In this document: piece by piece, positions 3,862 to 57,265 of the stretch
Layout: every line of letters starts with the position of its first letter
How positions within the stretch are numbered: position 1 is the stretch's first letter
Assembly: GCA_009785795.1 (NCBI GenBank)
Contig: WQVN01000003.1
Span: 1 to 61,635 of the forward strand
From: Coriobacteriia bacterium
Lineage (GTDB): Bacteria; Actinomycetota; Coriobacteriia; WRKU01; WQUG01
DNA: 61,635 bases
Direction of reading: 5' to 3'
Position numbers and translations under genes: made by a program
Notes under the pieces: generated by a model
What the model was told of the DNA's origin: nothing
The model's input: only the letters and a program-made list of their open reading frames with translations
Database searches by the model: none

Positions 3862-5148
3862 CTAACTTTTTTGGACAGGCTCTACCTGAAAGCCCTGTCC
3901 CGTTGGCGTTTTGAGAAACGCTGCAATTACTTCTGAGTTCTCTTCCCTGTTAATTGTACATGTTGCAAAGAGCAGCGTGCCATCATCTGCCACAAGCTGT
4001 GCCGACCAGCTAAGCATCTGCAAGCTTAACCGTGCAAGTTGTGGAATGTCTGCAGACTTTAGCTTCCAGCGCTTATCACTTGCGCGACGCAGGGTACCAA
4101 GTCCCGAACAGGGCGCATCGACCAGCACAGTATCAAAGGATGGATGAACGTTTTGCCGCTCCATGATGCCTGCTGCAGAATGCTTTGTCACATCTGCTGT
4201 GATGTAGCGAACTTCACGCACACCATATTCATCTGCAGTTCTTTGTGCGAGCTTTGTCTTAAAGTCATGCAAGTCAACACCTGTGATGCGTGCAGGCCCA
4301 CCCAGTTTGCGTGCTGCAGCAGCAAGAGCAAGTGACTTTGTGCCACGCCCACTGCCAACTTCAAGAATAGACTGATCGGGGCGGGCCTGACACAGAGCAA
4401 CGACTTGCTGTGCTGCAAGATCCATTGCAGTAAATGACTTACGTTGGTCTGCTGGCAATGCCCAAAACGCACTACGATCATGAATTAGTACCGCACCTGC
4501 AAGACCAGCATCTTCCCAGCTGATGCCCGCTGCATCAAGTATTGCCAGTGATTGCTTTTCCGACTGCAAGAAAGGTAAGTGTGCCACATAGAGCGGTGCC
4601 GGCTCATTATTGACTGCCATAATGTCGCCTGCTGTCTGCACGCCATATTCGCTGCGCAGCAGTTCTGCCATCCATACAGGATGACCATAAAGACGTGCCT
4701 GCGCTACAACATCTGTCAGAGGATTACCGCCAGGAAAAATGTCTGTTGCACGTTGTGACAGGCGACGCAGTACCGCATTCGCAAGGCCATTATATGTCTT
4801 TGATTGCGTAGCAAAGCGCACCATTTCTACGCCTTGGTCTACGACCACATAAGGCTCTGTACCCTCGAAAAATAGTTCATAGGCAGCAATTGCCAGTGCG
4901 TCTTTGACCTCGTCAGGAGTCGATTCAGGACGACTTAATTCTGCTGCCACCAGTTCATCTAGTGTTCCCCGTGTCGCAATTGTGCCAAAGCTTAGGCGCG
5001 TGGCAAACGCCTTATCGCGCGGTGATACCTTCATCTTTGCACCTACTTGCTGTAGGACGCTTTGCATGGTCTCTGCAGCATATGACTGGCGATCGCGAAC
5101 GCGTCGCACAACCTTTAGTGCAATCTTTCGTCCCTGGCTTAGTCCCAC
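3862..5148 (-). CDS. rsmB: 16S rRNA (cytosine967-C5)-methyltransferase
   Basis: NusB-like N-terminus plus a SAM methyltransferase core with DAPCSGLGTLRR. It sits downstream of fmt, as in the usual def-fmt-rsmB order. Confidence 0.85.
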   Translation of the reverse strand: MGLSQGRKIALKVVRRVRDRQSYAAETMQSVLQQVGAKMKVSPRDKAFATRLSFGTIATRGTLDELVAAELSRPESTPDEVKDALAIAAYELFFEGTEPYVVVDQGVEMVRFATQSKTYNGLANAVLRRLSQRATDIFPGGNPLTDVVAQARLYGHPVWMAELLRSEYGVQTAGDIMAVNNEPAPLYVAHLPFLQSEKQSLAILDAAGISWEDAGLAGAVLIHDRSAFWALPADQRKSFTAMDLAAQQVVALCQARPDQSILEVGSGRGTKSLALAAAARKLGGPARITGVDLHDFKTKLAQRTADEYGVREVRYITADVTKHSAAGIMERQNVHPSFDTVLVDAPCSGLGTLRRASDKRWKLKSADIPQLARLSLQMLSWSAQLVADDGTLLFATCTINREENSEVIAAFLKTPTGQGFQVEPVQKS

Positions 5149-6230
5149 TGCAAGCCTTCCTTAACGCCCTTAAAGCCGTTCAGCCAATCTGCTGCAGACA
5201 TTGCTCGCTTGTTGTCTGGCTTGACAGTAAGCAGTTCAACACTGCCATCTGCACAGCCCAGAATCACATGACGCTTACCTTGTTGTTTAATTATTTGCAC
5301 CGTGCCTTGTGGAACTACACACATTCTTTGAGATCCTTCGACTCTATGCTGCGCACTCCGCTCAGGAATGATTTTTACCGTGCTTTCTTCTGACGGATAA
5401 GATCCTTGCCTTCGACATTCCTCGCTACGTTCAGGAATGGAATTGCATATTGCAGTACAAAGCTCAGTACTGGGAATGATGCTTGCAGCCTCAAGAATTG
5501 TTGCGCCCTGTCCTGCAATGCTTAAACGCGCAGGTGCGCTTTCGCTGCTTGCTCGTACGCGCCTAATGAAGTCTACCGTGTGCAATTCTGGTGATAGCCT
5601 TAGTTCACTCTTTTCAATTTTATGTGCGTAGGTAACTGCAACTTCGTCTTGTGTTGTCCACTGTGCGCTGTCTCCCAGCAAGGCAGGCAGATTGTCAAAC
5701 AACAACTGCCCACCCATATCTGCGAGCTCACAATGTAATTCTGTCGCTGTTTTTTCTCCGATATCAGTACTCACAATAGCACAGTAAGGACCTGTATCCA
5801 GACCTTCTTCCATTTGCATGATGCTGACACCAATTTGCATATCACCTGCAAGAATTGCCCGTTCAATGGGTGCTGCTCCACGCCATCTAGGCAGTAGTGA
5901 AGCATGTACATTTACGCAGCCTCGTGGCGGAATATCAAGCACTTCTTTGGGCAATATCATGCCATAAGCCGCAACGACTATCAGGTCTGGGCACAAATCG
6001 CGCAATTGCTGCTGAGCTTCTTCATTGCGCAGAGTTTCGGGGCGAAATAGTGAAAGATTGTTTTCTATCGCAACCCTACTTACGGCACTGGGTACCACAG
6101 CCTTCCCCCGCTTTGAAATAGCATCAGGACGCGAATAGACTGCTGCAACTTCTGCAAATTTTAATGATTCAAGTAACATTTGAAGGATTCGTGCCGCAAA
6201 ATCAGGAGTACCCATAAACACTATGCGCAT
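5139..6230 (-). CDS. fmt: methionyl-tRNA formyltransferase carrying an insertion of about 45 aa in the C-terminal domain
   Basis: MRIVFMGTPDFA N-terminus and a HASLLPRWRGAAPI motif. An alternative upstream ATG at 6332 lies 2 nt after the def stop and would add 34 aa. The C-terminal domain contains the repeat-derived segment NSIPERSEECRRQGS...IIPERSAQHRVEGS. Confidence 0.9.
   Translation of the reverse strand: MRIVFMGTPDFAARILQMLLESLKFAEVAAVYSRPDAISKRGKAVVPSAVSRVAIENNLSLFRPETLRNEEAQQQLRDLCPDLIVVAAYGMILPKEVLDIPPRGCVNVHASLLPRWRGAAPIERAILAGDMQIGVSIMQMEEGLDTGPYCAIVSTDIGEKTATELHCELADMGGQLLFDNLPALLGDSAQWTTQDEVAVTYAHKIEKSELRLSPELHTVDFIRRVRASSESAPARLSIAGQGATILEAASIIPSTELCTAICNSIPERSEECRRQGSYPSEESTVKIIPERSAQHRVEGSQRMCVVPQGTVQIIKQQGKRHVILGCADGSVELLTVKPDNKRAMSAADWLNGFKGVKEGLQWD
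5332..5370. repeat. 39-nt long-form copy of the dispersed GATCCTTCG...GCTCAGGAATG repeat, inside fmt
   Basis: gatccttcgactctatgctgcgcactccgctcaggaatg. It is 32/39 identical to the copy at 53195..53233 and is translated on the minus strand as IPERSAQHRVEGS. Confidence 0.8.
5401..5439. repeat. second 39-nt long-form copy inside fmt (diverged interior)
   Basis: gatccttgccttcgacattcctcgctacgttcaggaatg. It has the same 39-nt length and conserved termini, and is 26/39 identical to 5332..5370. It is translated as IPERSEECRRQGS. Confidence 0.65.
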
Positions 6231-6334
6231 TTTTTGCGCAATAATACCTGGTCTCTCGATTCGCGAGTGATCAGTGTGCCAAGGTCGGTAGCTGGTCCCC
6301 CCTGTAAGAAAACTGTCCTGCATCAATCGCATCC

Positions 6335-6939: not shown

Positions 6940-7701
6940 CTACTCGTCTGAACCAGTGTAGACTAGCGTGAGTTCGCCGTCATCTGGAATGGGAACCTCA
7001 GTGTCATTTTGCATAACTACAACGTTTTCAGGAGTATCGATTTGAATTTCTGCCAGTAGCACGTCAGAAAACGATTTGCTGCTTCCACCCAACAGTGCTC
7101 CGTCAAAGCCCAGATTGCCATCAATTTCTATCCGTACATTGCTTGCTGTCCCAGGTTCTGTTTGAATGTTCAATGAAAAGGGGGCTCGATCCTCTTCTGG
7201 CACATCTTCTGTTGCATCATTTGTTGCAACTGCACCATCCTCTGAATCTTGCTGATCATCTGCGGCTACTTCAGCAGATACGGGAGTTGCGCGCTGAGCA
7301 GCCTGAGTACCATCGCGACTCATCAGATAAATTGCGCCAACAATTATGGCAATAATAACGACAACCACTATGATGACGCGCCAGTTTATCTCGCTCTCTG
7401 GATGACGAGAACCCAGGCGCTGAGCAGATCCCGAATAGAGGTCTTCGCCTATAGTATCGCGCCTATTACTGCCTGATTGGCGCTCAAATTGTTCAAGGAA
7501 TGGCTGTGGATCAGCATCGCAAACCTTACAGTAACTTAAAATAAAACCGCGGACATATCCTGCAACAGGCAAAGCATCTAATTTGTCATCTTCTAGATTA
7601 TAAATCGCAGACTGCATAATGCGCGTACGCTGCGCAATGTCGTGGGCGCTTAAACCAGCTTCTTTTCTGGCAGCAATTAGCATATCGCCCAGACTAGTCA
7701 T
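6940..7701 (-). CDS. RodZ-like protein (XRE-type HTH, TM helix, DUF4115-like C-terminal domain)
   Basis: N-terminal HTH (LSAHDIAQRTRIMQSAIYNLE), then a TM helix (VIIVVVVIIAIIVGAIYLM), an acidic linker and a beta-rich C-terminal domain. AGGAGA lies upstream of the ATG at 7701. Confidence 0.7.
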   Translation of the reverse strand: MTSLGDMLIAARKEAGLSAHDIAQRTRIMQSAIYNLEDDKLDALPVAGYVRGFILSYCKVCDADPQPFLEQFERQSGSNRRDTIGEDLYSGSAQRLGSRHPESEINWRVIIVVVVIIAIIVGAIYLMSRDGTQAAQRATPVSAEVAADDQQDSEDGAVATNDATEDVPEEDRAPFSLNIQTEPGTASNVRIEIDGNLGFDGALLGGSSKSFSDVLLAEIQIDTPENVVVMQNDTEVPIPDDGELTLVYTGSDE

Positions 7702-7796
7702 GCGTGGCCAACTCTCCTGCGACCACCATTCAGACAGTCGGCACCTAAACCAGCTTCTTTTCTGGCATCAATTAGCATGTCGCCCAAGCCTGTCAT
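7698..7796 (-). CDS. 32-codon upstream ORF created by duplication of the rodZ-like 5' end
   Basis: The peptide is MTGLGDMLIDARKEAGLGADCLNGGRRRVGHA. Its ATG overlaps the ftsK TGA stop (ATGA). Its own TGA overlaps the rodZ-like ATG (ATGA). Whether it is translated is unknown. Confidence 0.3.
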   Translation of the reverse strand: MTGLGDMLIDARKEAGLGADCLNGGRRRVGHA

Positions 7797-10237
7797 GCGT
7801 CGTTCGTTCCCCCATGATCAAAGTCGTCATCATCACCAGAGGTCATCATTTTCGCTAAATCTTCTGCATCCATAAAGACCTCGCGAGGTTTTGAGCCATC
7901 AGGTGGCCCCACTACCCCCTTTGACTGTAACATATCCATGATACGCCCTGCACGCGAATATCCCACTTTGAAACGTCTTTGTATGCCAGAGGTCGACCCA
8001 AAGCCTGCAGACACTACCATTTCTGCTGCCTCCCACAATAAGGGATCGTCCTCACTACTTGCACCACCTGCTGCACCACCACCAGCAGTCGAAGCTGCCG
8101 CGGTCAAAATGTCGTCATGATAGTCAGCGTCGGACTGCTTCTTTATTTCATTGACAACCGCATCGATCTCGCCCTCGGAAACATAACAGCCCTGTATGCG
8201 TTTTGGATGTGGCCATGCTGGTGTTGAAAACAGCATGTCACCAAGTCCCGTCAATTGCTCTGCGCCACTCTGATCAAGCACCACGCGCGAATCAATTGCT
8301 GTTGCCGTTCTAAACGCAACCCTATTGGTAATGTTTGCCTTGATAAGTGACGTTACAACATTGGCATCGGGACGCTGTGTGGCAACAATCAAATGAATGC
8401 CTGCCGCACGCGCCAGCTGCGCAATGCGAACAATGGACGACTCGACTTCTTTTGCTGCAACCATCATGAGATCTGCGAGTTCGTCAATAACGATTACCAG
8501 ATAGGGCATCTCTTCTGCGCCTTCGTCTAATTTTCCATCAATAAGCTGCTGGTTGTACTCTCCAATATTTCGCACTCGTGCCTTTTCAAGTACCTTTAAG
8601 CGACGGTCCATTTCGTGAGTTGCCCATGCAAGTGCAGCTGCCGCCTCTTTTGCTGTGGTGACAACAGGTACATACAGATGCGGCAACCCATTGAACATAG
8701 ACAGCTCAACACGTTTTGGATCGATTAAGATCATGCGCACTTCTGCAGGAGTCGCACGCATGATGATAGACATAATCATGGTATTGATAGCAACAGATTT
8801 ACCTGATCCTGTTGATCCGCCAATCAGCAGATGGGGCATCCCTGCAAGATTACGAGAAATGCTTGCACCCGTGATATCCTTGCCCATAAACAGGGTTAGT
8901 GGACTATCAGCAGATGTCGCAGGCGTGATAATGTCACCTAGAGTCACCGAACTACGATCTGCATTGGGCACCTCTACCCCCACAAGACTCTCACCTGGAA
9001 TGGGTGCCAAAATACGCAAGGTCGGAGCAGCAAGTGCAAGTGCAAGATCATCAGCAAGCGTCGTGACCTTGTTTAGGCGAATACCACGTGCAATCTCGAC
9101 CTTGTACAGGGTGACGGTTGGTCCTACAATCCAGTCAACAACGCGTGAATCAACATCAAATATGCGCAGAGTATCCACCAGAGAATCTGCGGTCGCCTGC
9201 TTTTCTGCATGCGCTTCATCACTGTCTGCACTGCCATTTGCAGCACTTTTCACAAGTAGATCAAGGGATGGCAACTCAAAGCCATCCTGCGCACGAGGTG
9301 TTGTTGTGTTTTGTGTCATCTGTTCTGAGGGACGGGCATCCAGCACCTGCGTTGCAGAATCATTAGTATTGTCTGCCGCATGTCCGCCCTGACAGTCATC
9401 ATAGGCATCATCAAAAGTTCCCTCTGCAAGAATTTCAGTGGAACTGTCACTTGCAGGACTATCTGAAAGTAGTTTTGTTGGCTGATCTTCGAAAGAATTC
9501 GATGCAGGTTGCTTGCGCTTTCTGCTTGTATTGTCAGAGAGCTTTGTCGTGCGCGAACCCTCGCGCATTGCTTGCTCTGCTTCGCGATGAGCACGGCTTT
9601 CCAGAGCAAGCTCTCTGCGCGCAAGGATCCACTCGAAGACTGCTGATAGCGATACTCCCGTAATCACCAGCCCGATTAATGCTACTGCACCTAAGATTAC
9701 GTACGATATGGCAGTGCCCAGCAAGGTATGAAGTCCCCAGGCAATAGCATTACCTACATAGCCTCCAAAAAACTGTAGACCGTCAAAACTAAAGGTTTCT
9801 ACCGTACCCGTTACTGCTTGCAGACCAGCAAGACTGGTGAGTGACAGCAATAAACACCCCAGTCCCAGTGCAAAACGCGCCTCTGCAAAGCGCAGTGCGG
9901 GAATGAAAAAGGTTAGTCCCATAACGATAAGAACAAAGGGAAAGGCAAAGCGTCCAATGCCTATGACGAAGCCCAATCCCAGTGCAATGAATTCCGCAAC
10001 AACACCTGTCTGTGGCAAGATTACGGCAAGTGCAAGTGCAATACCTAATGCCAGTAAAACAATGCCCCAAATGTCTGACAGTGCGCGCTCATCAATAAGG
10101 GGTTCACGTTCAGGTGTATTTTTTGCACGACTTGCCGCTGATTTGCGCGAACCTGTCTTTGCATCGTTTTTGCGCGAACCTGTCTTTGTGGCCTTAGAAC
10201 GCGCTGTTGAACCTGCTGTTTTCTTCTTCGCTGACAC
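7793..10237 (-). CDS. ftsK: DNA translocase FtsK
   Basis: Basic N-terminus, four or more TM helices, a long low-complexity linker, a motor domain with GGSTGSGKSV and DELADLM, and a C-terminal gamma-like winged helix. Confidence 0.92.
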   Translation of the reverse strand: MSAKKKTAGSTARSKATKTGSRKNDAKTGSRKSAASRAKNTPEREPLIDERALSDIWGIVLLALGIALALAVILPQTGVVAEFIALGLGFVIGIGRFAFPFVLIVMGLTFFIPALRFAEARFALGLGCLLLSLTSLAGLQAVTGTVETFSFDGLQFFGGYVGNAIAWGLHTLLGTAISYVILGAVALIGLVITGVSLSAVFEWILARRELALESRAHREAEQAMREGSRTTKLSDNTSRKRKQPASNSFEDQPTKLLSDSPASDSSTEILAEGTFDDAYDDCQGGHAADNTNDSATQVLDARPSEQMTQNTTTPRAQDGFELPSLDLLVKSAANGSADSDEAHAEKQATADSLVDTLRIFDVDSRVVDWIVGPTVTLYKVEIARGIRLNKVTTLADDLALALAAPTLRILAPIPGESLVGVEVPNADRSSVTLGDIITPATSADSPLTLFMGKDITGASISRNLAGMPHLLIGGSTGSGKSVAINTMIMSIIMRATPAEVRMILIDPKRVELSMFNGLPHLYVPVVTTAKEAAAALAWATHEMDRRLKVLEKARVRNIGEYNQQLIDGKLDEGAEEMPYLVIVIDELADLMMVAAKEVESSIVRIAQLARAAGIHLIVATQRPDANVVTSLIKANITNRVAFRTATAIDSRVVLDQSGAEQLTGLGDMLFSTPAWPHPKRIQGCYVSEGEIDAVVNEIKKQSDADYHDDILTAAASTAGGGAAGGASSEDDPLLWEAAEMVVSAGFGSTSGIQRRFKVGYSRAGRIMDMLQSKGVVGPPDGSKPREVFMDAEDLAKMMTSGDDDDFDHGGTNDA

Positions 10238-10264: not shown

Positions 10265-11104
10265 CTAAAAACCGACAAAGTAAAGCGCTGCAAGTACTAC
10301 TCCCAGTAAAGCAGCATATAGCGCAAAGTAATTCAGACTAGTCTTTGACACAAGTCTAATCATCCATGCAATAGTCAGATAACCCAGCACGCCCGCAATC
10401 ACAAAACTCACTGCCGATATCCAAAAGCTAGGCAATATCAAGGTTCCCTGCAACATCCGCGCCACATCGCGCACAGATCCTGCCACGATAATGGGAATCG
10501 TCAGCAGAAAGCTATAACGTGTTGCCTGTGGTCTGGACAGTCCCATCCACAATCCCGCAGCAATAGTCGCACCACTGCGTGAAATTCCTGGAATCACTGC
10601 AAGTCCTTGAATAAATCCAATAAAGGCAGCACGCCCCAAAGTGAGCTTGTCCATTGTCCGCCGCAAATTAAGCTTTGCAAGCACATATTCTGAGGAAATC
10701 AACATGGCTGCCGTCACCACAAACATTGAACCCAGTATTAGCAAATTGCTAGAGAACTGTGCCAGATAGCCCGAGAGCAATAATCCCATGGGACCTGTTA
10801 CCAGCATACTAATAATCAGAAAGATAGTCGTGCGGCGCTGTGGACGCATTGATTCAGCATTCTTTGGCATCCAAGAGACTATAAAGTCTTTAATGTCATT
10901 GCGAAAGTACACCACAGCAGCAATCAGGGTTGGAATATGCAGAAAGAAGTAAAAATCGACTGCTGCCTGCGGATCACCGTCAAAAAACATATTCAAAATC
11001 GACAAATGTCCAGAACTTGACACGGGAATAAATTCTGTTATCCCCTGCACAATCGCCATAACGACAGCATATGTCCAATCAGCTATGACAACTATGCTTA
11101 ACAC
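10265..11104 (-). CDS. uppP: undecaprenyl-diphosphate phosphatase
   Basis: BacA/UppP signature GITEFIPVSSSGHL and PGISRSG; polytopic membrane protein. Confidence 0.9.
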   Translation of the reverse strand: MLSIVVIADWTYAVVMAIVQGITEFIPVSSSGHLSILNMFFDGDPQAAVDFYFFLHIPTLIAAVVYFRNDIKDFIVSWMPKNAESMRPQRRTTIFLIISMLVTGPMGLLLSGYLAQFSSNLLILGSMFVVTAAMLISSEYVLAKLNLRRTMDKLTLGRAAFIGFIQGLAVIPGISRSGATIAAGLWMGLSRPQATRYSFLLTIPIIVAGSVRDVARMLQGTLILPSFWISAVSFVIAGVLGYLTIAWMIRLVSKTSLNYFALYAALLGVVLAALYFVGF

Positions 11105-18796: not shown

Positions 18797-20032
18797 CTAT
18801 CTATCCTCTCTATCTGTCAGCACGCGGTCTATAGTACCACCGCCTAGCACAGTACCTGCACTGTCAAAGAACACTGCGGCCTGTCCAGGAGTGATTGCTC
18901 GTTGTGCGACGTCAAAGCATACCTGAACGTACTCTGCACTTTGATGTTGCACACACTGGATTGTTCCTGCATGCTTGGCGTGCTTGTAGCCCACTTTAAC
19001 ATGACACTTCATGGGCTGTGTGGGCGCTATTGGCAGAGCTATCCAGTTTAGGTCACGCACCAGAAAATCTGTATGCAGCAAGCCCTGTTCGTCATCACCA
19101 ATCGTAACGGTATTTGCCACAGCATCAATTGACTGTACAAAGACTGGTCTGCCATGCGCACCCAATCCCTTACGTTGGCCAATTGTGTAATAAATCAGCC
19201 CCTTATGCTGTCCAACAGCCCGACCATTTACATCAAGCATATCGCCAGGAACAGGAAGTTCCTGGCCGCCTGCCACACGTGTGCGTTCGATATAGCCAGC
19301 ATAATCCCCATCTGGCACAAAGCAAATATCCTGGCTCTCAGCTTTTTCTGCATTGGAAAAACCAGCATCTGCAGCAAGCAGGCGAATCTCAGACTTGTGA
19401 TAATCGCCTAATGGCAGCTTGATGCGAGATAACTGTTCTTGCGATAAGGTGTACAGCACATAACTCTGATCTTTACGACTATCCACTGCACTTTGCACAA
19501 CCCAGCGACTATAGTTCTCGCTATAGTTAATACAAGCATAGTGGCCTGTTGCAAGAACATCGCAGTCCAGCTCATCTGCAATTTCAAGTAGCGCACCAAA
19601 CTTCAATTGCCTATTGCAGACAATGCAGGGGTTAGGAGTTTCACCCGATGCATAACCTTGTATAAATGGCTCGATTACTTGGTGAGAAAAACGTGTACGT
19701 AGATCATACTTGTAAAAGGGAATTTCAAGCTGCCGAGCAATGTTGGCAGCTGCTTGTGCTTCAGAGCTTGGGGGCAAAATCTCGCATGATGCCTTCAGTG
19801 GTGACATGCAAGATCCTTCGCTTTGCTCAGGAATGATATCTGGACATACATCACCGTGCAGTAACATGTGAACACCCATGCAGTCGTACCCCGCACGCTG
19901 CATCAACAGTGCGGTCACCGAGCTATCAACTCCCCCACTCATTGCTATCAAAGCCCGCTTTTTCAAACCAATCCCCAAATCCAAACAAATAGCAAAGATG
20001 CCCCTAGTGCTCAAGGTCAAGGCGGATTGCAT
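18797..20032 (-). CDS. mnmA: tRNA 2-thiouridine(34) synthase MnmA, with a repeat-derived in-frame insertion
   Basis: PP-loop SGGVDSS and full-length MnmA-like sequence. The true start may be the TTG at 19966 (LKKRALIAMSGG), which has GGGGA upstream. The insertion IIPEQSEGS is encoded by the dispersed repeat. Confidence 0.88.
   Translation of the reverse strand: MQSALTLSTRGIFAICLDLGIGLKKRALIAMSGGVDSSVTALLMQRAGYDCMGVHMLLHGDVCPDIIPEQSEGSCMSPLKASCEILPPSSEAQAAANIARQLEIPFYKYDLRTRFSHQVIEPFIQGYASGETPNPCIVCNRQLKFGALLEIADELDCDVLATGHYACINYSENYSRWVVQSAVDSRKDQSYVLYTLSQEQLSRIKLPLGDYHKSEIRLLAADAGFSNAEKAESQDICFVPDGDYAGYIERTRVAGGQELPVPGDMLDVNGRAVGQHKGLIYYTIGQRKGLGAHGRPVFVQSIDAVANTVTIGDDEQGLLHTDFLVRDLNWIALPIAPTQPMKCHVKVGYKHAKHAGTIQCVQHQSAEYVQVCFDVAQRAITPGQAAVFFDSAGTVLGGGTIDRVLTDREDR
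19810..19835. repeat. 24-nt short-form copy of the dispersed repeat inside mnmA
   Basis: aagatccttcgctttgctcaggaat (19810..19834) is an exact 25-mer match to 57099..57123. It is translated on the minus strand as IIPEQSEGS. Confidence 0.85.
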
Positions 20033-27851: not shown

Positions 27852-29183
27852 TTAGTCGCTCGGATTACCCCGCGCTTGCCAGCGAGCAAGTTCATCGCGA
27901 TCAAAGTTTACGTGACAGGTTTCACACCATTGTATGTCCGCGTGACATCTGGTACATGAATCGCCACCGACTTCACGTGCGGCATCAGCATGTTGAATCC
28001 ATTCCCAGTTTACCCGTGGGTCGAATTCCCAGCCAGTGATATATTCCTCTCTGTGGTGACAGGCACTACAAGTGTCTCCAGCGCTTGTGCCTGCCAAATC
28101 ACCTGCGGCAGCAGGAGTATTGTTCACTGGTGATATCGTATGACAGATTTCACATGAATCTGGATAGTTGGTAGCATCATCAATGTGCGGTTGCAGCAAA
28201 TAGCCATCTGGGTGAGGCATTGGAAGTCCACCGTGACAGTCATCACAGAAACGCGTCGTATGACAGGTATAGCAGTAGTTAACTGCACGAACAGAAGGTA
28301 CCTGATCAAGCGCCATTGAATAAGGGTCGGTACGTCCCGTCATGTCGTTATAGGTATCAAGTGGCCCAGCGATAAAATTATCAATGGATTCAACAATATC
28401 TATGTACCATGGTCCATGAATGTCTTCGACAAAGCGAGGTACATTGTGGTTATCTGGCACCAGTTCAAAGTTGTCAGTGTGACAAATGTAGCACTCGCCT
28501 GTTGCACCAGGAAACTCGCCAATAGGATACGGAGTGGTTACACGCTGACCATCGTCTTCTTCAAAGCGGTGACAGCGATAGCAGGCTGTCATCAGCATAA
28601 AGCAGTCGTGGAATTGTGAATCGTGCAGTTCGGGAGGATATGCTGGCCAGATTGGCTGCCAGTCATTTATAAGCTCATTGTGTCCTACACGGTTGTGACA
28701 TGCAGTACAAGTGATGTACAAATCAGTGTGTGCGGCATGATCCATGATGATGCCCGGGCTGGTGAGTGTTTCGCGATTCTCCAACCGGTGACACTGCGTA
28801 CAGTACTTGCTAGGTAATTCCTTAGGATCCATCGCTACCCAGCTGGTTGCATTAATGGGCATCTCTACTGTTCCCATTATCGTCTTTGGCAGCGAAGTCA
28901 TAGCCCCTGCTTTAAAGATGATAAAGTCAATAGGATTGCCACCGGGCTGCTTATGACATGCGATACAGGCTACTCCTGTATGCGTTGAGTTGTCATAAGA
29001 ACTTACGGTATCTGCCTGTGGATAGTGACATACTGCAGCACAGAACCAATAGGTTGTTGTTACTGCAACCGCGATTGCAATTACAAGCATCAGACCAGTA
29101 GCTACTGTACCTGTCCAGATGATTGCGCGTGCGCGGGTACGCTTATTCTTAAAAGCGTCTACAATTGCACGAATCAGTTTCAT
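27852..29183 (-). CDS. membrane-anchored multihaem c-type cytochrome (11 CXXCH motifs plus one CX3CH)
   Basis: An N-terminal TM helix is followed immediately by FCAAVCH. The remaining motifs are CIACH, CTQCH, CTACH, CYRCH, CYICH, CYTCH, CDDCH, CEICH, CSACH, CTRCH and CETCH, all within 443 aa. Confidence 0.85.
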   Translation of the reverse strand: MKLIRAIVDAFKNKRTRARAIIWTGTVATGLMLVIAIAVAVTTTYWFCAAVCHYPQADTVSSYDNSTHTGVACIACHKQPGGNPIDFIIFKAGAMTSLPKTIMGTVEMPINATSWVAMDPKELPSKYCTQCHRLENRETLTSPGIIMDHAAHTDLYITCTACHNRVGHNELINDWQPIWPAYPPELHDSQFHDCFMLMTACYRCHRFEEDDGQRVTTPYPIGEFPGATGECYICHTDNFELVPDNHNVPRFVEDIHGPWYIDIVESIDNFIAGPLDTYNDMTGRTDPYSMALDQVPSVRAVNYCYTCHTTRFCDDCHGGLPMPHPDGYLLQPHIDDATNYPDSCEICHTISPVNNTPAAAGDLAGTSAGDTCSACHHREEYITGWEFDPRVNWEWIQHADAAREVGGDSCTRCHADIQWCETCHVNFDRDELARWQARGNPSD

Positions 29184-35060: not shown

Positions 35061-36278
35061 TTATGCTGCGACAGGTGTCACCTGATCCACATCAACAACG
35101 TGCTCTTTTTCGCTCTTTCTATCTACGTAAATCAGATAGACAAGGAACAACGCAATGACGGCACTTGCAACCATGATAAGGATAATCTGCATTGGATTTG
35201 CATAATCACCTGTTTTTGGACCCTCGCTGGGACGATTTTGACCTGGTGTTGTTCCACCACCTGTGGTGCCACCACCAGGAGTATCACCATCACGATCTGG
35301 GTCGCGGTCCGGATCAGGATCGGGGTCAGGATCTCTGTCACCTGGCTCACGATCATTGCTATCACCAGTGTATGTATTTATAAATGACATGGAACCTACT
35401 TGGCGATTCTCGTGATTTGTTACCACGCGACTCAAGCGCAAGCGACCACCTTCGTCATACACTGTATCGGTGATAGTGTAAACTGCCGTGTCAAAGGTAT
35501 AGTCCTCATTACCTGTATTAACTTCTGTAACTTCGTAAACAAATACACCTGCTTCAGTGTAGACCCACACGCCAAACTCAGTAGTGCCTGAACCAGTAAC
35601 CGTTACTTCTTTTACACCATTAGTGCTACCCTCTGGCATTGGATTGTCAGGGTTTTGCGCAGTAAGTCTAAAGGTAAAGGTGTAGGCTTCTGCAGGATTT
35701 CCCTGAACGGACTTAACAACAGGTGGATCAACCGGTATCATATCTCCCGGCTCAGTTGGCTGGAAGCCATATTCCTGATTAAAGATAACATCTACTTTTG
35801 GATCAACCGTTCCTGCACGCACTGCACGCACTTCAACGGTAAGCGTATTACCTGCAGCATTCCTTACATCAACAACCACCGTAAAGACCGCATCATCATA
35901 GACATATCCTGGTCTGCCAGAACCTGTAACAACGGTTTGGATGTCATAATAAAAGAGTCCTGCATGCGTAAAGGTAATCGGACCAACATTCACCGTCTCA
36001 GTACCTTCAATCGTAAATTGATAGCTGCCGCCAACGAGTCCCGAGGTTGAGACTGGCATAGGATTTGCAGGATCTTGTGGCGTCAACCTATAGGTAAACA
36101 CGCCATCGCTCCCCGCACCATCAGGTGCGTCAAATACTTGCCTGACAGGAATAGTGGTTGCAACTGATGCAGCAGACGCCGTTGCAGGAAGTGCAACAAG
36201 CAGAGTAGTGAAAGCAAACAGCATTATCACGGCTACAAGAGCGGTTTTTGTAAGCGATCTACTTTGCAGTATGTTCAT
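35061..36278 (-). CDS. cell-surface protein with two pilin isopeptide-linkage (FctA/Spy0128-like) domains and a C-terminal sorting signal
   Basis: Signal peptide, then two repeats of the pattern F.YRL.P....NPMP....G..YE...E...Y.YD..VY.V.V.V....KV.F.N.Y. Then comes a Pro/Asp/Gly low-complexity stalk, GPKTGD, a hydrophobic helix and a DRKSEKE tail. Confidence 0.75.
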   Translation of the reverse strand: MNILQSRSLTKTALVAVIMLFAFTTLLVALPATASAASVATTIPVRQVFDAPDGAGSDGVFTYRLTPQDPANPMPVSTSGLVGGSYQFTIEGTETVNVGPITFTHAGLFYYDIQTVVTGSGRPGYVYDDAVFTVVVDVRNAAGNTLTVEVRAVRAGTVDPKVDVIFNQEYGFQPTEPGDMIPVDPPVVKSVQGNPAEAYTFTFRLTAQNPDNPMPEGSTNGVKEVTVTGSGTTEFGVWVYTEAGVFVYEVTEVNTGNEDYTFDTAVYTITDTVYDEGGRLRLSRVVTNHENRQVGSMSFINTYTGDSNDREPGDRDPDPDPDPDRDPDRDGDTPGGGTTGGGTTPGQNRPSEGPKTGDYANPMQIILIMVASAVIALFLVYLIYVDRKSEKEHVVDVDQVTPVAA

Positions 36279-45407: not shown

Positions 45408-45549
45408 GGCGATTCTCTCCCCATCACGCAATATACTTGATACGCACATTATATGGGAGGCATTCAATCAGATTTGATGCATTCAAGCATCGTTTACATG
45501 CGGATGCCAAAACGTAGGAATGACGCGCACCAGGCACAATCAAACGCAG

Positions 45550-52145: not shown

Positions 52146-52828
52146 ACGAACTAATTAGAGTAGCGCTAGTTGATGACGACCCCTTTGTGCGTGCTTCACT
52201 CGCCACTATTCTTTCTGCAGATGATAGCGTCGAAATATGTGGTGAAGCAGGCAACGGAAAGGATGCAATTGCGCTTTATGCAGATGTGCAGCCCGACATT
52301 TTGCTCATGGACATTCAGATGCCTACTGTTGATGAAATCGCTAATGGGCTTGACGCAGCGACAGAAATTCTGCAGGGCTTTCCTGATGCACGAATTGTTT
52401 TTCTGACAACCTTCTCAGATGAAGAATATCTAAAAACTGCTCTGCGTCTGGGTTCAAAAGGCTACCTGATTAAGCAAGAAGTTGGCACCCTATTGCCTGC
52501 CCTGCGCTCGGTTATGGCAGGACAAGTTGTTCTGGGCTCAGAAATACCAGAAAAAATGGGGGCACTCCTTGCAGATAAGGATGCGAGCAGCGACAAGCAC
52601 GTACGCGAACAAGCAGCACGCGACGGTCTATCAGAGCGAGAATTTCAAGTGCTTGAACTCATTGCATCTGGACAGGACAACAAAGAAGTTGCAGCAGAGC
52701 TTTTCGTGAGTGAGGGTACTGCGCGTAACTACGTGAGCAATATATTGCAGAAACTTGCGCTAAAGAATCGTACGCAGCTTGCAAGCTACTATCATCGAGC
52801 TCTTGGTCAGACTCTTAATAGTCCCTGA
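52142..52828 (+). CDS. LuxR/NarL-family response regulator
   Basis: Receiver domain (VDDDPF..., LLMDIQMP), a C-terminal LuxR HTH (LSEREFQVLELIASGQDNKEVAAELFVSEGTARNYVSNI), and an ATGA overlap with the kinase gene. Confidence 0.9.
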   Translation: MNELIRVALVDDDPFVRASLATILSADDSVEICGEAGNGKDAIALYADVQPDILLMDIQMPTVDEIANGLDAATEILQGFPDARIVFLTTFSDEEYLKTALRLGSKGYLIKQEVGTLLPALRSVMAGQVVLGSEIPEKMGALLADKDASSDKHVREQAARDGLSEREFQVLELIASGQDNKEVAAELFVSEGTARNYVSNILQKLALKNRTQLASYYHRALGQTLNSP

Positions 52829-53604
52829 GCTATGCGCTGCACGACTGCGTTGATGTCAAGCGGACTATAATCCATGCTGTCCTGCTTGCTTCCTTCGCAT
52901 TCCTCAGCGTAGCGAAGGATCTCACCTGTTCCGCCTAAGCGCGCTTCACGAGCACTGATTAGATTGAGCGCACCGTCTGCCACCTGGTCAGGACTTAGAC
53001 CACAGGTATCAATCCGTCTGGCTATGTAGCCAAAGTTGCGCTGCAGCCAATACAGCAGTAGCTCAAAAGCTGATTGCTGAGCGGCAATTGCATTAACGGT
53101 ATAGACACGACTCGCATCCATGCGACGGTGGATTGTCACAGGATCGCCATGCAAGAACAGCAATTCGCCAGATGCTGGTGTTGCAGACATATGAGATCCT
53201 TTGGCTTCGTGCTGCACACTTCGCTCAGGAATGGTGGAAGTGTGTGCATGGGTGCTGGAAAGTGCTTCTGCAGATGTTGCAGCCATCATTTGCTGGGCGC
53301 GCTCTTGCCACAATTCAGGTCTGTAAAAAGCAAAGGTGTCAAGAGGCGAACGGTCAATTACAAACAGCTCAGCTGGATCTGCATTAATGAGCTGATTCTT
53401 GCGTGCAAGCTGCTCAAATATCCATGATTGAATGTCAGCGATGTCATCTTCTGAATGTGCATCCATAGACTGCCCAACTTGAGCTGTCATTGTTTCTGGC
53501 CATTCCTCATAGATGCTTGCCTGTGGCAAGCGTCGAGCAAGCTCATCTCGCAGAGTTGACTTGCCTACCCCCACAACTCCCATGATGTAATAACGCCGCT
53601 GCAC
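52807..53604 (-). CDS. P-loop NTPase, deoxynucleoside-kinase-like; function unknown
   Basis: Walker A GVVGVGKST near the N-terminus and a DRSPLD motif. The GTG start overlaps the uvrA TAG stop by 1 nt. It contains two repeat-derived segments (TIPERSVQHEAKGSH and GEILRYAEECEGS). Confidence 0.7.
   Translation of the reverse strand: MQRRYYIMGVVGVGKSTLRDELARRLPQASIYEEWPETMTAQVGQSMDAHSEDDIADIQSWIFEQLARKNQLINADPAELFVIDRSPLDTFAFYRPELWQERAQQMMAATSAEALSSTHAHTSTIPERSVQHEAKGSHMSATPASGELLFLHGDPVTIHRRMDASRVYTVNAIAAQQSAFELLLYWLQRNFGYIARRIDTCGLSPDQVADGALNLISAREARLGGTGEILRYAEECEGSKQDSMDYSPLDINAVVQRIAQGLLRV
52891..52921. repeat. short-form repeat copy in inverted orientation, with an extra 7-bp flanking inverted repeat
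   Basis: The reverse complement of 52898..52921 is gatccttcgctacgctgaggaatg, which is 21/24 identical to the mnmA copy. tccttcg (52891..52897) pairs with cgaagga (52913..52919). It is translated as EILRYAEECEGS. Confidence 0.7.
53195..53233. repeat. 39-nt long-form repeat copy inside the P-loop gene
   Basis: gatcctttggcttcgtgctgcacacttcgctcaggaatg is 32/39 identical to the fmt copy at 5332..5370. It is translated as IPERSVQHEAKGS. Confidence 0.8.
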
Positions 53605-56417
53605 TAAGACAAAACTTCCCGCAGGTACTTGCCCGTATACGAACCTTTGACCTGAGCAACCTCCTCAGGAGTACCACTGGCTACAACATTGCCACCAGCC
53701 TGTCCTCCTTCAGGACCCAGATCTATAATATGGTCAGCACTCTTGATTACATCTAAGTTATGCTCAACTATAAGCACCGTATTGCCACCATCAACCAGAC
53801 GCTCCAGCACCAGCAACAGCTGACGCACATCATCAAAATGTAATCCAGTCGTTGGTTCATCTAGTATGTAGAATGTTCTTCCCGTACTGCGACGCTGCAA
53901 TTCACTTGCAAGTTTGACGCGCTGTGCTTCTCCACCACTTAAGGTTGTCGCTGCCTGACCCAGACGAATATAACCCAGCCCCACATCAAAGAGTGTTTGC
54001 AACTTGCGCTTAACTGGTGGAATATTTTCAAAAAAGCTCAGGGCTTCTTCAACGCTCATGCCTAAAATATCACTGACATTCTTACCGCGATAAGTCACTT
54101 GTAGCGTCTCGCGATTGTAGCGTTTCCCACCACAAACTTCGCAAGGCACATAAATGTCGGGCAAAAAGTGCATCTCAATCTTTATCTGTCCGTCACCCTT
54201 ACAGGCCTCACAACGACCACCTGCAACGTTAAAGCTAAAGCGTCCTGGCGCATATCCTCGAGCCTTTGCCTCAGGAGTCGACGACAGTAGCCCGCGAATA
54301 TCGTCCCACACTCCTGTATAGGTAGCAGGATTAGATCGCGGAGTACGTCCAATCGGACTCTGATTAATATCAATGACTTTGTCGAGTGCGCCCAATCCAC
54401 GTATTTCACGATAGCTGCCCACACGACGACGTGCACGCTGCAGTCTATTAGCAAGAAGTGGCGCAAGAGTATCAGTGATTAGCGACGATTTCCCGCTGCC
54501 AGATACTCCTGTCACAACAGTCAAAGCCCCAATAGGAATATCAATGTCAATGCCTTGCAGATTATTTTCGCCTGCACCAAATAACTCGATATCGCCACGC
54601 TCTGGATTGCGACGCTCACTGGGTACGGGGATTTCGCGCCTGCCACTCAAATAGTCAGCAGTCATTGACTTGCGGCTGCGCTCAACCTGCTTTGGGGTGC
54701 CCTGTGCAACGATTTCACCGCCATGTTCACCCGCGCCTGGACCCATGTCAATAACATGGTCTGCCGCACGAATTGTATCCTCATCGTGTTCAACCACAAT
54801 TACCGTGTTACCTAGGTCTCGCAAACGCTCAAGTGTCGCAATCAGGCGTGCATTATCGCGCTGATGCAGACCAATGCTGGGCTCATCAAGTATGTACAGT
54901 ACACCCATAAGACCTGCACCAATTTGTGTCGCCAGACGAATACGTTGTGCTTCTCCGCCACTTAGCGTCGCAGTTGCACGCTCAAGAGTCAAATAGTCTA
55001 GCCCAACATCAACCAGAAAGTTCAGTCGCTCGACAATTTCTTTATTCACGCGTGCTGCAATGGCAAGGTCGCGCTCACTTAATGTCAGGCCATTAAAGAA
55101 ATCCAATGAATCTTTTGCCGACATAGAAGTTATCTGAAAGATATTCTTGCCCCCCACGGTAACGGCAAGAATCTCTGGTTTTAGACGTGCACCCCCACAG
55201 GTCTTACAGGGAATAACTGCCATGTAACGCTCCATTTTTGTGCGCACTTGCTCAGAGTCAGAGTCTGCATGCTTGCGCATGACCTCTGCAACTGCGCCTC
55301 CCCATGTGCTAAACCAGTGAGTCTCGCGACCGCTCCGTGTCATGTATCTAACCTGAATGCGATCTTCTCCTGTGCCAAACATAAACTTATCGCGCACGTC
55401 CACAGGTAGCTCACCCCAAGGAGTATCTATATCAGCACCAATGTGGTCTGCAATTGCTGCAAACAATTGCGGATAATAGTTGCCACCTGTACCAAAGGGA
55501 GCAAGTGCGCCCTGAGCTATGGACAGTTCGGGATCGGGCGCAACAAGTGCTGCATCAACTTCGAGACGAGAACCCAGACCACTGCAGTCTGGACATGCTC
55601 CATATGGCGCATTAAAACTGAAGTCGCGCGGAGCAAGCTCATCAAGTGATATGCCATGTTCGGGACAAGCAAGTGCCTGCGAAAAAGTTTGTGTGTCTTC
55701 TCCTGCAAGCACTGTCACCAGGCCGCCTGCAATACGCAGGGCAACCTCGACGGCATCTGTCAGGCGGGTACGTGAACTTTCACGCAGTACGATGCGATCA
55801 ACCACTACATCGATATCATGCTTGAATTTCTTATCAAGTTCGATTTTCTCATCGAGAGTGCGCAATTCGCCATCAACACGAACACGCAAAAATCCTTCTG
55901 CGCGCAAATCTTCAAAGAGCTTTGCAAACTCGCCTTTGCGTCCACGCACTACAGGGGCAAGCACCTGCAGGCGATCACCCTCTGCCCCCTGCATGATAAG
56001 GTCAACTATCTGGTCAGGAGTCTGACGACTAATTTCAATTCCACAGACAGGACAATGGGGAATGCCCACACGTGCGAACAACAGGCGCAGATAGTCATAG
56101 ATTTCAGTTACCGTACCAACCGTTGAGCGCGGATTCTTACTCGTGGTTTTTTGATCTATCGATACTGCAGGCGAAAGCCCCTCAATGTGATCAACATCGG
56201 GCTTGCTCATCTGTCCAAGAAATTGACGAGCATAAGCAGAAAGTGACTCAACGTAACGTCGCTGTCCCTCTGCATAAATAGTGTCAAAAGCAAGCGAAGA
56301 CTTCCCACTGCCAGAAAGTCCGGTAATCACAACCAATTTGTCGCGCGGAATCTGCAAATCAATATTTTGCAGATTGTGTTCACGTGCTCCTTTTATCGCA
56401 ATTTTTTCCGTAGCCAA
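53604..56417 (-). CDS. uvrA: excinuclease ABC subunit A
   Basis: Two ABC ATPase modules (GLSGSGKSS and GVSGSGKSS), zinc-finger cysteines, LSGGEAQR signatures, and a TTG start at 56417. Confidence 0.95.
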
Positions 56418-56456
56418 GATTATTTAGTTCTCCTTACGAAATCATGTATTAAAATC

Positions 56457-56489
56457 TACCGAAAGTACGGTATCCTTACTATTATAGCA
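56457..56489 (-). promoter_or_regulatory. candidate uvrA promoter (extended -10 TGCTATAAT) followed by the palindrome TACCG-N6-CGGTA
   Basis: On the minus strand TGCTATAAT occupies 56489..56481. The inverted repeat taccgaaagtacggta occupies 56457..56472, 8 nt further downstream on that strand and 40 nt before the TTG start. Confidence 0.3.
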
Positions 56490-56546
56490 AGATTATCCTC
56501 AATTAGGACAAACAACTATTCGTTAATATGCATAAGGAGTAGGTCC

Positions 56547-57095
56547 ATGGCAAGAGGCTCAAGTGGTGACAGAGGTACGACCATTGTTGGCAGTGGTCAT
56601 GCTGCTAATCGTATGCCAAAAAATCATGTGCTCGTCGAATTCTCTGGTGCATTAGATGAAGCACAAGTTGCCCTAGGATTTGCCATTGTCGAATCTCAGG
56701 CGCAGGAACACGCGCATCAACTGAGCGAACTCACTGACTGTCTGGTCTGGATGCAGCGACAGATATTCGCCTCGGGAACTATCGTCTTGAAAAATGCTCC
56801 TATGGATGCAATCGCTGATTGGTCATGGGACAAACTACTTGAAGAAGTTGAGCGCTGCAACAACTATTTTGCCCCAACAAAGCCTATACGTGACTTCATC
56901 TTGCCAGGCGGATCAGAACTCGCAGCTCGTATAGAGTTTGTACGTGTCGCTATCAGAAGAGTCGAACGAAGCTACTGTGCTTGTAGTTTTCCCGACCGCG
57001 ATGCCTTGCCATTCTACAACCGCCTATCAAAGCTGGCATTCACCCTTGCCCGCCACAGTAATGAAGTCCTTGAAGCACCTGAAACTCTACTGTAA
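56547..57095 (+). CDS. ATP:cob(I)alamin adenosyltransferase, PduO type
   Basis: The start MARGSSGDRGTT has AAGGAG 8 nt upstream. GD.GTT and GALDEAQVALG motifs are typical of the PduO/MMAB family. Size is about 183 aa. Confidence 0.8.
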   Translation: MARGSSGDRGTTIVGSGHAANRMPKNHVLVEFSGALDEAQVALGFAIVESQAQEHAHQLSELTDCLVWMQRQIFASGTIVLKNAPMDAIADWSWDKLLEEVERCNNYFAPTKPIRDFILPGGSELAARIEFVRVAIRRVERSYCACSFPDRDALPFYNRLSKLAFTLARHSNEVLEAPETLL

Positions 57096-57098
57096 TTG

Positions 57099-57123
57099 AA
57101 GATCCTTCGCTTTGCTCAGGAAT
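57099..57123. repeat. intergenic short-form copy of the dispersed repeat
   Basis: aagatccttcgctttgctcaggaat is identical over 25 nt to 19810..19834. It begins 4 nt after the adenosyltransferase stop codon. Confidence 0.85.
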
Positions 57124-57175
57124 AGTAATAATGCATCAAAGCACCAATAGTGTTCCAAACCTTCAGTGTTAAGAC

Positions 57176-57237
57176 GAGTCAAAAAACTCAGCTGTGAAGC
57201 GTAGCAACCTTACGTGAACAGCTGAGTTTTTTGACTC
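57176..57237. terminator. bidirectional rho-independent terminator between convergent genes
   Basis: Perfect 20-bp stem gagtcaaaaaactcagctgt / acagctgagttttttgactc with a 22-nt loop. The A- and T-runs give a U-tract in both directions. Confidence 0.75.
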
Positions 57238-57265
57238 GACGCAGAGACTGGAGACGCCTGGGGCG

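Follow-up and report, generated by a model that had tools for sequence, protein, structure and literature searches.

The mnmA gene of an uncultured Coriobacteriia bacterium lies on the minus strand at positions 18797..20032 of a 61,635-nucleotide (nt) stretch of contig WQVN01000003.1 (assembly GCA_009785795.1; the whole stretch is hereafter called the window) and contains a 25-nt string, AAGATCCTTCGCTTTGCTCAGGAAT, that recurs letter for letter in intergenic DNA of the same window. The string occurs exactly twice, at 19810-19834 and 57099-57123, both on the plus strand, with 0.00 matches expected from dinucleotide shuffles, and the neighboring bases of the two copies differ (c/g before, g/a after), which sets the identity at exactly 25 nt. 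A sequence-only reading of the window had reported this exact identity between a coding and an intergenic site and had considered a chance match negligible; both points are borne out, with small corrections. The range that it gave for the mnmA copy, 19810-19835, is correct at its start and one base too long at its end (19834), and of the encoded peptide that it read, IIPEQSEGS, the first isoleucine (ATC, 19835-19837) falls outside the 25-mer, leaving IPEQSEGS. Repetitive extragenic palindrome (REP)-type elements are short hairpin-forming repeats that are common in many bacteria, and we hold with high confidence that the 25-mer is one unit of such a repeat, inserted in-frame into coding DNA in this lineage.

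The two copies sit in different surroundings. On the gene strand of mnmA, the first reads ATT CCT GAG CAA AGC GAA GGA TCT T, that is, IPEQSEGS plus one base. The second begins 3 nt past the TAA stop (57093-57095) of a plus-strand open reading frame (ORF; 56367..57095) whose product is a cobalamin adenosyltransferase of the PduO type (Pfam PF01923). The convergent rpoD lies on its other side, and the DNA between the two genes also contains, downstream of the copy, a perfect inverted repeat of 21 nt (57175..57238; inverted-repeat pair I3) with A-run and T-run flanks (AAAAAA/TTTTTT). RNA folding of 57090-57239 gives -56.9 kcal/mol (z = -8.0), and the inverted repeat is likely a bidirectional terminator, which a simple terminator scan passed over because its loop is 22 nt long. 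Since the two 25-mers share the same DNA orientation in hosts that are transcribed in opposite directions, the resulting RNAs would be complementary over 25 nt, and the location of the intergenic copy between a stop codon and a strong terminator hairpin makes its transcription probable. The 3' untranslated region (UTR) of the adenosyltransferase transcript (plus strand) could then pair with mnmA mRNA (minus strand) and so control mnmA, with RNase III as one possible route. However, any repeat shared by units that are transcribed in opposite directions produces such complementarity automatically. Each of the two sites also folds on itself, and the other copies in the window (see below) would pair similarly without evident logic. 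We consider trans-antisense regulation of mnmA very improbable.

The mnmA ORF encodes a 411-amino-acid (aa) tRNA 2-thiouridine synthase, assigned by homology and by Pfam domains PF03054, PF20259, and PF20258, and it is otherwise intact, with its invariant catalytic columns conserved. Its copy of the 25-mer lies within an in-frame insertion of 78 nt (26 codons) at 19760..19837 on the minus strand, corresponding to residues 66-91 (IIPEQSEGSCMSPLKASCEILPPSSE), which an alignment of homologues (A1) shows to be missing from 16/16 of the closest MnmA proteins (~50 to 65% identical); those without the insert pass directly from "PD" to "AxxA(R)". The sequence-only reading had described this segment as variable in MnmA, and the alignment agrees: the block is kept in none of the 16 relatives. 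The insert reads as a dimer, in which arm 1 (the short-form unit of 24 nt, plus 1) is separated by a spacer from a degenerate inverted arm 2, AGATTTTGCCCCCAAGCTCTGAA, assigned by eye, whose reading EILPPSSE resembles the EILRYAEE of a reversed copy elsewhere in the window. As RNA, the 86 nt around the insert (19755-19840) forms one long hairpin in which arm 1 pairs with arm 2 (-24.4 kcal/mol, z = -1.9). Neither a target-site duplication at the insert junctions (CCAGAT/ATCATT ... TCTGAA/GCACAA) nor terminal repeats beyond the hairpin arms were found. In an AlphaFold model built on the homologue alignment (predicted local distance difference test score [pLDDT], 85; predicted template modeling score [pTM], 0.82), pLDDT drops to <50 only at residues 1-20 and 62-87, and the insert is predicted to form a disordered loop that joins a strand to a helix within the PP-loop domain. 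The other low-scoring segment, residues 1-20 of the longest ORF (19973-20032), is likewise predicted to be disordered; the true mnmA start is probably 30 codons downstream, because the protein is listed in the database (P0001) with 381 aa.

The exact MnmA of the source organism is present only on two ENA metagenome contigs (ERZ27257297 and ERZ27257300). One equals the window exactly; the other differs at 8/5266 positions, keeps both the 25-mer and the insert, and on the basis of these differences is from a slightly different strain. No empty-site mnmA allele was found: scans of metagenome contigs with the 3' half of the long form of the repeat and with the exact 24-mer gave 0 matches, and the protein database held no closer MnmA. 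The organism is uncultured and repeats can mislead assemblers, and an assembly or chimera artifact of the metagenomic contig is a conceivable source of the insert. Yet the same mnmA insert is present in two independent assemblies, one of them representing the slightly different strain, and all insertions in the window preserve the reading frames of otherwise conserved genes; we regard the odds of an artifact as close to nil.

The sequence-only reading had addressed these two loci only. The window contains six copies of one family, three short (24 nt) and three long (39 nt), and members of this family also occur across many phyla. Its pattern is AT(T)CCT-GA-GC-NNN-GC-GA-AGGATCT, and the long form is the unit with its middle expanded by ~15 nt. 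Repeat search and pattern scanning recover ends common to all six copies on one strand, AGATCCTT...TCAGGAAT, and plus-strand counts of the two half-sites are 5 and 9, compared to ~0.9 expected. The short form comprises arm 1 in mnmA (19810..19834) and the intergenic copy (57099..57123), both exact matches with the unit reading on the minus strand, and a plus-strand copy, ATTCCTCAGCGTAGCGAAGGATCT, at 52899..52922 (inverted-repeat pairs I1 and I2), antisense to the AAA_28-like gene in which it lies. The long form is found on the minus strand at 53194..53232 in the same AAA_28-like gene, where it encodes IPERSVQHEAKGS (family D1; regex scan), and twice in fmt, at 5331..5369, encoding IPERSAQHRVEGS (family D1), and at 5400..5438, encoding IPERSEECRRQGS. 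The last of these is more diverged (family D1, 67% identity; regex scan), and ATTCCTGAACGTAGCGAGGAAT, the 5' portion when read along the gene, makes up a complete small hairpin; the DNA fold for this copy is -4.7 kcal/mol.

Five of the six copies are intragenic, in-frame, and stop-free, in three genes (one in mnmA, two in fmt, and two in the AAA_28-like gene), and these five fall within four inserted stretches of about 25 to 48 aa. Because in-frame, stop-free copies would otherwise be unexpected for independent insertions of ~75 nt, their occurrence in all five cases indicates that the host frames are under selection and that the inserts are translated. Five of the six copies are on one strand, and all four forward coding copies are read as IPE(R/Q)S...GS, numbers too small for significance; the reversed copy is read as EILRYAEE. 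Four coding copies in the same reading frame, all in-frame and without stops, might suggest that several enzymes independently acquired IPE(R/Q)SxxGS as a peptide motif with a function. We find this hardly credible, as the noncoding copy is identical at the DNA level, one coding copy is on the other strand, the unit elsewhere is mostly intergenic and is read in several frames where it lies within ORFs, the insert is predicted to be disordered, and base pairing rather than codons is conserved. In this respect the sequence-only reading was right to see a DNA-level repeat instead of protein-level conservation, given the identical noncoding copy and the lack of the block in the closest relatives.

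The second host gene, fmt (5139..6332, minus strand), encodes a methionyl-tRNA formyltransferase (Pfam PF00551 and PF02911; PDB entry 1FMT, E = 2e-62) with two tandem copies 69 nt apart. Compared to E. coli Fmt (1FMT), the protein has ~48 extra residues in a loop of the C-terminal domain, where both copies lie, and this insert is missing from solved structures and distant relatives. Close relatives (alignment A3) carry diverged inserts of varying length at the same loop, and some inserts within the clade hold motifs such as SIAERAEDPS and SIAERTEHP, ~24 aa apart. At the DNA level, a segment ATTGCGGAGCGT(G/A)CTGA(A/G)(G/C/A)ACCC(T/C), encoding IAER(A/T)E..., is located at the Fmt loop of two of the closest relatives, at 10922-10951 and 10994-11023 in locus L114 and at 10853-10882 in L116. 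The loop inserts of these relatives (SIAERAEDPS..., ATTGCGGAGCGTGCTGAAGACCCT) match the element at only ~55 to 60% and are not callable as copies; nevertheless, the segments look like diverged descendants of one ancient tandem insertion. The fmt inserts are evidently old, and since clade relatives hold similar, diverged motifs at the same loop, the tandem pair appears to predate the split of the clade species. That consensus ends are kept in the fmt copies of the window's genome may hint at concerted evolution or conversion there. At its N terminus, the fmt ORF (6231-6332) extends ~34 codons upstream of the conserved MRIVFMGTP start; this extension is common to several clade relatives (P0122-P0140), with a conserved RIERP(G/A)(F/Y) motif, and may be a real, clade-specific feature rather than a miscalled start.

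The third host (52807..53604, minus strand) encodes an AAA_28-like P-loop protein of 265 aa (Pfam PF13521; homologues P0241, E = 4e-52, and P0242, E = 6e-49). It contains two inserts of ~25 aa with one element each, both missing from its nearest homologues (alignment A4). The reversed copy at 52899 lies within a 25-aa insertion, REARLGGTGEILRYAEECEGSKQDS, and the long copy at 53194-53232 within one of ~24 aa.

Outside the window, prokaryotic genomes, one for each species, were scanned with the pattern AGATCCTTYG-N(3-33)-GCTCAGGAAT, which gave at least 111 stretches. Among the matches listed, lengths of 23, 24, and 25 nt account for 11, 23, and 8 cases (42 in total) versus ~3.6 per length (~11) if the distribution were flat. 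Sources of the listed short matches are Bacteroidota (among them the isolate Gillisia hiemivivida), Rubrivirga sp. (also an isolate), Acidobacteriota, Verrucomicrobiota, Pseudomonadota, Bdellovibrionota, Patescibacteria, Treponema (Spirochaetota), and the termite-gut Coriobacteriia metagenome-assembled genome (MAG) WRBW01. Most of the listed copies from other phyla have no long ORF across them or lie at ORF ends, and those inside ORFs are read in several frames. At many listed loci an inverted partner arm of the type GTnAnnCCT-GA-GCGnAGC-GA-AGGnnTCTCC is found 20 to 25 nt away, and at other-phylum loci the two arms together form an imperfect palindrome of ~75 nt. In WRBW01, one copy (L077) is located 6 nt past the stop of a permease gene, and a canonical CGTC-ACCCCGCG...CGCGGGGT-CTC hairpin (L060) directly follows pheT. 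The L060 locus also has, at 4126-4182, a unit with the usual ends (ATTCCTGAGCG...CGAAGGATCT) and a 30-nt inner hairpin (GCAAAATATTC...GATTTTTTGC), indicating that the repeat loop is an expansion site in other genomes too, as in the 39-nt forms of the window. Two longer length classes of the scan were rejected as elements: the 38-nt class (e.g., L019, L030, L064, L106, and L113) and the 50-nt class (e.g., L016, L043, L071, and L081) are conserved Flavobacteriia/Rhodobacteraceae coding segments that contain both half-sites. A search of the full-text literature found no paper containing sequence strings of the unit.

These matches bear on the age of the identity between mnmA and the intergenic site, which the sequence-only reading had attributed to recent spread or gene conversion. 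A recent private event of this kind, either gene conversion or fresh transposition between the intergenic unit and mnmA in either direction, would account for 25 identical nt that include the variable loop (CTTT), in which the other four window copies differ, and for an mnmA insert that is missing from every relative compared. However, among the matches listed, the 24-mer of the window recurs identically in a Roseivirga (L005) and a member of the Bdellovibrionales (L069). Of its 24 positions, 20 follow the family consensus, with variation confined to the loop; in the listed set of 23 members of 24 nt from other genomes, 36/506 ordered pairs are identical, so that any two short-form members are expected to be identical in ~7% of cases. 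The exact identity is therefore insufficient evidence for a recent event and shows shared family origin. In addition, the identity ends exactly at the unit edges, and arm 2 of the mnmA dimer has diverged strongly, unlike a fresh insertion. The nearest relatives are only ~60% identical, so the absence of the insert from them, which makes it lineage specific at that distance, also allows a very great age. Overall, we consider a recent private event unlikely.

On the ATTCCT strand, the unit is predicted by folding programs to adopt the structure ((((..((...))..)))), whose outer stem pairs ATCCT with AGGAT (one T bulges out where the sequence is AT[T]CCT). In this predicted fold, two tandem G.A mismatches separate the outer stem from an inner GC/GC stem, which closes a loop of 3 to 4 nt, or about 17 to 18 nt in the long forms. 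Evidence for this hairpin comes from covariation among loci of other phyla. When sites were selected on the core only (GAGC-N3-5-GCGA), 31/151 had at least 4/5 complementary flank positions, compared to 12.7 +/- 3.3 under permutation (maximum 25 in 2000); selection on tag plus core gave 28 sites versus 14.8 +/- 3.4. Stems of the well-paired sites include ATCCT/AGGAT, ATCCC/GGGAT, ATGTC/GACAT, ATTCT/AGAAT, and CTCT/AGAG, and in other phyla these sites have a 5' YGTC tag (CGTC, TGTC, or GGTC at individual copies), a stem starting with AT, and a 3' CTC tail. In alignment A5, which comprises 25 other-phylum arms, pairing is seen in 90% of cells, with compensatory changes in 6/7 pairs, whereas slid controls reach at most 52%. 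These substitutions show the hairpin to be under pairing constraint. A covariance model (R1) built from A5, with no window sequence included, recovered five window copies clearly and the sixth weakly: the short forms at 57098-57126 (34.8 bits, E about 1e-9), 19809-19837 (32.6 bits, E = 4e-9 to 8e-9), and 52896-52924 (29.7 bits, E = 5e-8 to 1e-7), the long forms at 5329-5372 (22.8 bits, E = 3e-5) and 53192-53235 (17 bits, E = 4e-3), and, weakly, the diverged long form at 5413-5442 (10.7 bits, E = 0.47). A further hit at 52396-52431 (E = 0.04) was discarded as a false positive, since it falls where a response-regulator receiver domain is conserved.

Of the known repeat systems, the family most resembles CGTC-tagged REPs. 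As published (Di Nocera, De Gregorio & Rocco 2013, BMC Genomics 14:522, PMC3733652), these elements have a CGTC, TGTC, or CCTC tag, stems of 8 to 9 bp that start with A-T, T-A, loops of 4 to 5 nt, and a short unpaired tail with the consensus CCA; they occur mostly as inverted dimers with spacers of 20 to 100 bp, <20 bp past ORFs, and have no dedicated transposase. Their hosts are Proteobacteria, Chlorobi, Bacteroidetes, Spirochaetes, and Thermotogae, and Neisseria dRS3 and Rickettsia conorii RPE-4/RPE-6 are members of the superfamily (PMC3733652). Intragenic CGTC units, listed in Additional file 3 of that paper, add 7 to 10 aa as single units (e.g., VIPAKAGI and CHSRESGNP) and 20 to 33 aa as dimers (e.g., the 26-aa VVPAKAGTSLGQSAKTNEIPASAGMT in glycyl-tRNA synthetase), and several lie in tRNA-modification genes (PMC3733652). 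Measured against that description, the present family shares the short palindromic unit; a 5' tag that stays unpaired (YGTC, in other-phylum copies only) together with a brief 3' tail; placement a few bases past ORF 3' ends (3 nt at 57099, 6 nt in L077, and after pheT in L060), between convergent or codirectional genes; in-frame intragenic copies in tRNA-modification and translation genes, the 26-aa MnmA insert being within the dimer range; and the lack of a known dedicated transposase. Its stem, which likewise starts A-T/T-A and spans ~9 positions, and its small loop appear similar, as do the inverted dimers that are frequent at other-phylum loci, where the spacers measure ~20 to 25 nt. It differs from the described elements in the two tandem G.A mismatches of its stem (CTGA-GC...GC-GAAG), in its tail (CTT/CTC for window copies and CTC(N) for those of other phyla, versus CCA), in the 39-nt window variants with an expanded loop, in the intragenic location of 5/6 local copies, and in its host phylum, Actinomycetota (Coriobacteriia), which is outside the five listed. 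By the same yardstick, the window stem has 9 positions, of which 2 are G.A mismatches, with one T bulged and a loop of 3 to 4 nt.

Other systems match less closely. Like GTAG REPs and REPINs with RAYT (Nunvar 2010; Bertels & Rainey 2011, PMC3116915), the family consists of hairpin repeats that are usually extragenic, and as in REPINs, where the spreading unit is an inverted doublet folding into one long hairpin (PMC3116915), the 78-nt mnmA insert reads as a doublet of this kind. In contrast, no GTAG lies beside any copy examined, no RAYT (Y1/HUH) gene was found in the window, where Pfam scans covered 34 of the ~50 ORFs, and GTAG REP/REPIN systems are described mainly in Gammaproteobacteria. 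Bacterial miniature inverted-repeat transposable elements (Correia/NEMIS, RUP, Nezha, and ERIC) are also small nonautonomous hairpin repeats that are sometimes found in ORFs, but they have terminal inverted repeats of 15 to 30 bp and target-site duplications, neither of which is present at the mnmA insert. Palindromic repeats inserted in-frame into housekeeping genes and translated at tolerant surface positions were reportedly described by Ogata et al. in 2000 as RPE-1 of Rickettsia. Those elements are 100 to 150 bp long and limited to Rickettsia, unlike the 24- to 39-nt units and ~75-nt dimers here. Inspection of the consensus ruled out a hammerhead ribozyme core (CUGA...GAA is present but CUGANGA is not), as well as a k-turn, a C/D box, an attC site, a CRISPR repeat, a terminator, and a DNA uptake sequence.

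We propose that the units normally occupy sites a few bases past gene 3' ends, singly or as inverted doublets of ~75 nt, with the 57099 copy as an ordinary intergenic example, and that in this Coriobacteriia lineage units or doublets have also entered coding DNA. Only those insertions that kept the frame and introduced no stop codon would have survived, and the survivors, being in-frame and stop-free, would be translated as extra loop peptides (IPE[R/Q]S...GS or EILRxAxE), presumably at tolerant surface positions of MnmA, Fmt, and the AAA_28-like protein. The identity between the mnmA and intergenic copies would then follow from shared family membership and the same loop variant. We speculate that the family spreads in a transposition-like manner, presumably via single-stranded hairpin intermediates, as in REP/RAYT and IS200/IS605. 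The intergenic copy may act, if at all, as a 3' mRNA hairpin, and the coding copies may be neutral passengers. In our judgment this explanation probably holds as a whole, including the assignment of the family within or next to the CGTC-tagged REP superfamily, for which the comparison was made with the published description of the superfamily.

Several observations count against this explanation. A clean CGTC/TGTC tag is missing from the six window copies, where the four bases preceding the stem are TATC, AATC, TTCC, CACC, TACT, and TCGC. The 24- to 29-nt unit folds weakly, at -2 kcal/mol for DNA and -6 kcal/mol for RNA, which is no improvement on shuffles (z near 0 to -1.2), and the case for a hairpin therefore rests on covariation rather than on energy; the arms of A5 were picked by hand. 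The R1 model had no hits in the syntenic loci of the closest relatives, L114 and L116. Finally, Pfam identified no transposase among 34 of the ~50 ORFs in the window, the others having been named only by inspection or from synteny with genes called in L001, L114, and L116.

Alternatively, the unit could be a pan-bacterial structured nucleic-acid motif that is bound by a conserved host factor, as the 3' end of an mRNA or as single-stranded DNA, and is not merely selfish DNA. Near-identical units of 23 to 25 nt in at least seven phyla, without a known transposase or an Rfam family, would fit such a motif, as would a fixed core, CUGA-GC-NNN-GC-GAAG, in which tandem G.A pairs are maintained as the outer stem covaries freely. 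At gathering thresholds, the window drew no Rfam hits, and at 18 other-phylum loci the hits were confined to tRNAs. If the motif were of this kind, the in-frame copies and the complementary transcript pairs, such as the adenosyltransferase 3' UTR and mnmA, would have regulatory consequences. We give this alternative a distinctly low probability.

With a REP-type repeat as the preferred explanation, the striking identity between coding and noncoding DNA requires nothing exotic, and a known phenomenon, in which REP-type hairpin repeats add loops to proteins, now extends to uncultured Coriobacteriia. Essential translation-related enzymes, MnmA and Fmt, tolerate such inserts. For annotation, peptides of the "IPERSEGS / EILRxAQE / SLRSG" type should be expected to be repeat derived. 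The broad distribution of a unit with a fixed G.A core and no known mobilizing enzyme is a question for the field.

Other features of the window and its relatives were observed alongside the repeats. The genes uvrA, uvrB, and uvrC are all within the window and none contains a repeat, whereas REPs of other species are frequent in uvr genes. Among the housekeeping genes, and likewise repeat-free, are genes for a cytochrome c7-like multiheme protein (27852-29183), a Spy0128/FctA-type isopeptide pilin (35061-36278), and a 1,473-aa surface protein with DUF7601 (41046-45467). In the related loci L116/L117, a toxin-antitoxin pair comprising a PIN-domain protein and a MazE-like protein (1465-2116) is inserted between genes that are adjacent in L114. 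A separate direct repeat of 64 nt (family D3; 7642-7705 and 7737-7800), 86% identical and 95 nt apart, has its first copy across the start of an HTH_25-like gene (6940..7701) and its second just upstream, at the end of ftsK. The second copy would encode an out-of-register near-duplicate of the N terminus (MTGLGDMLIDARKEAGL...), and the pair looks like a small tandem duplication of the gene start.

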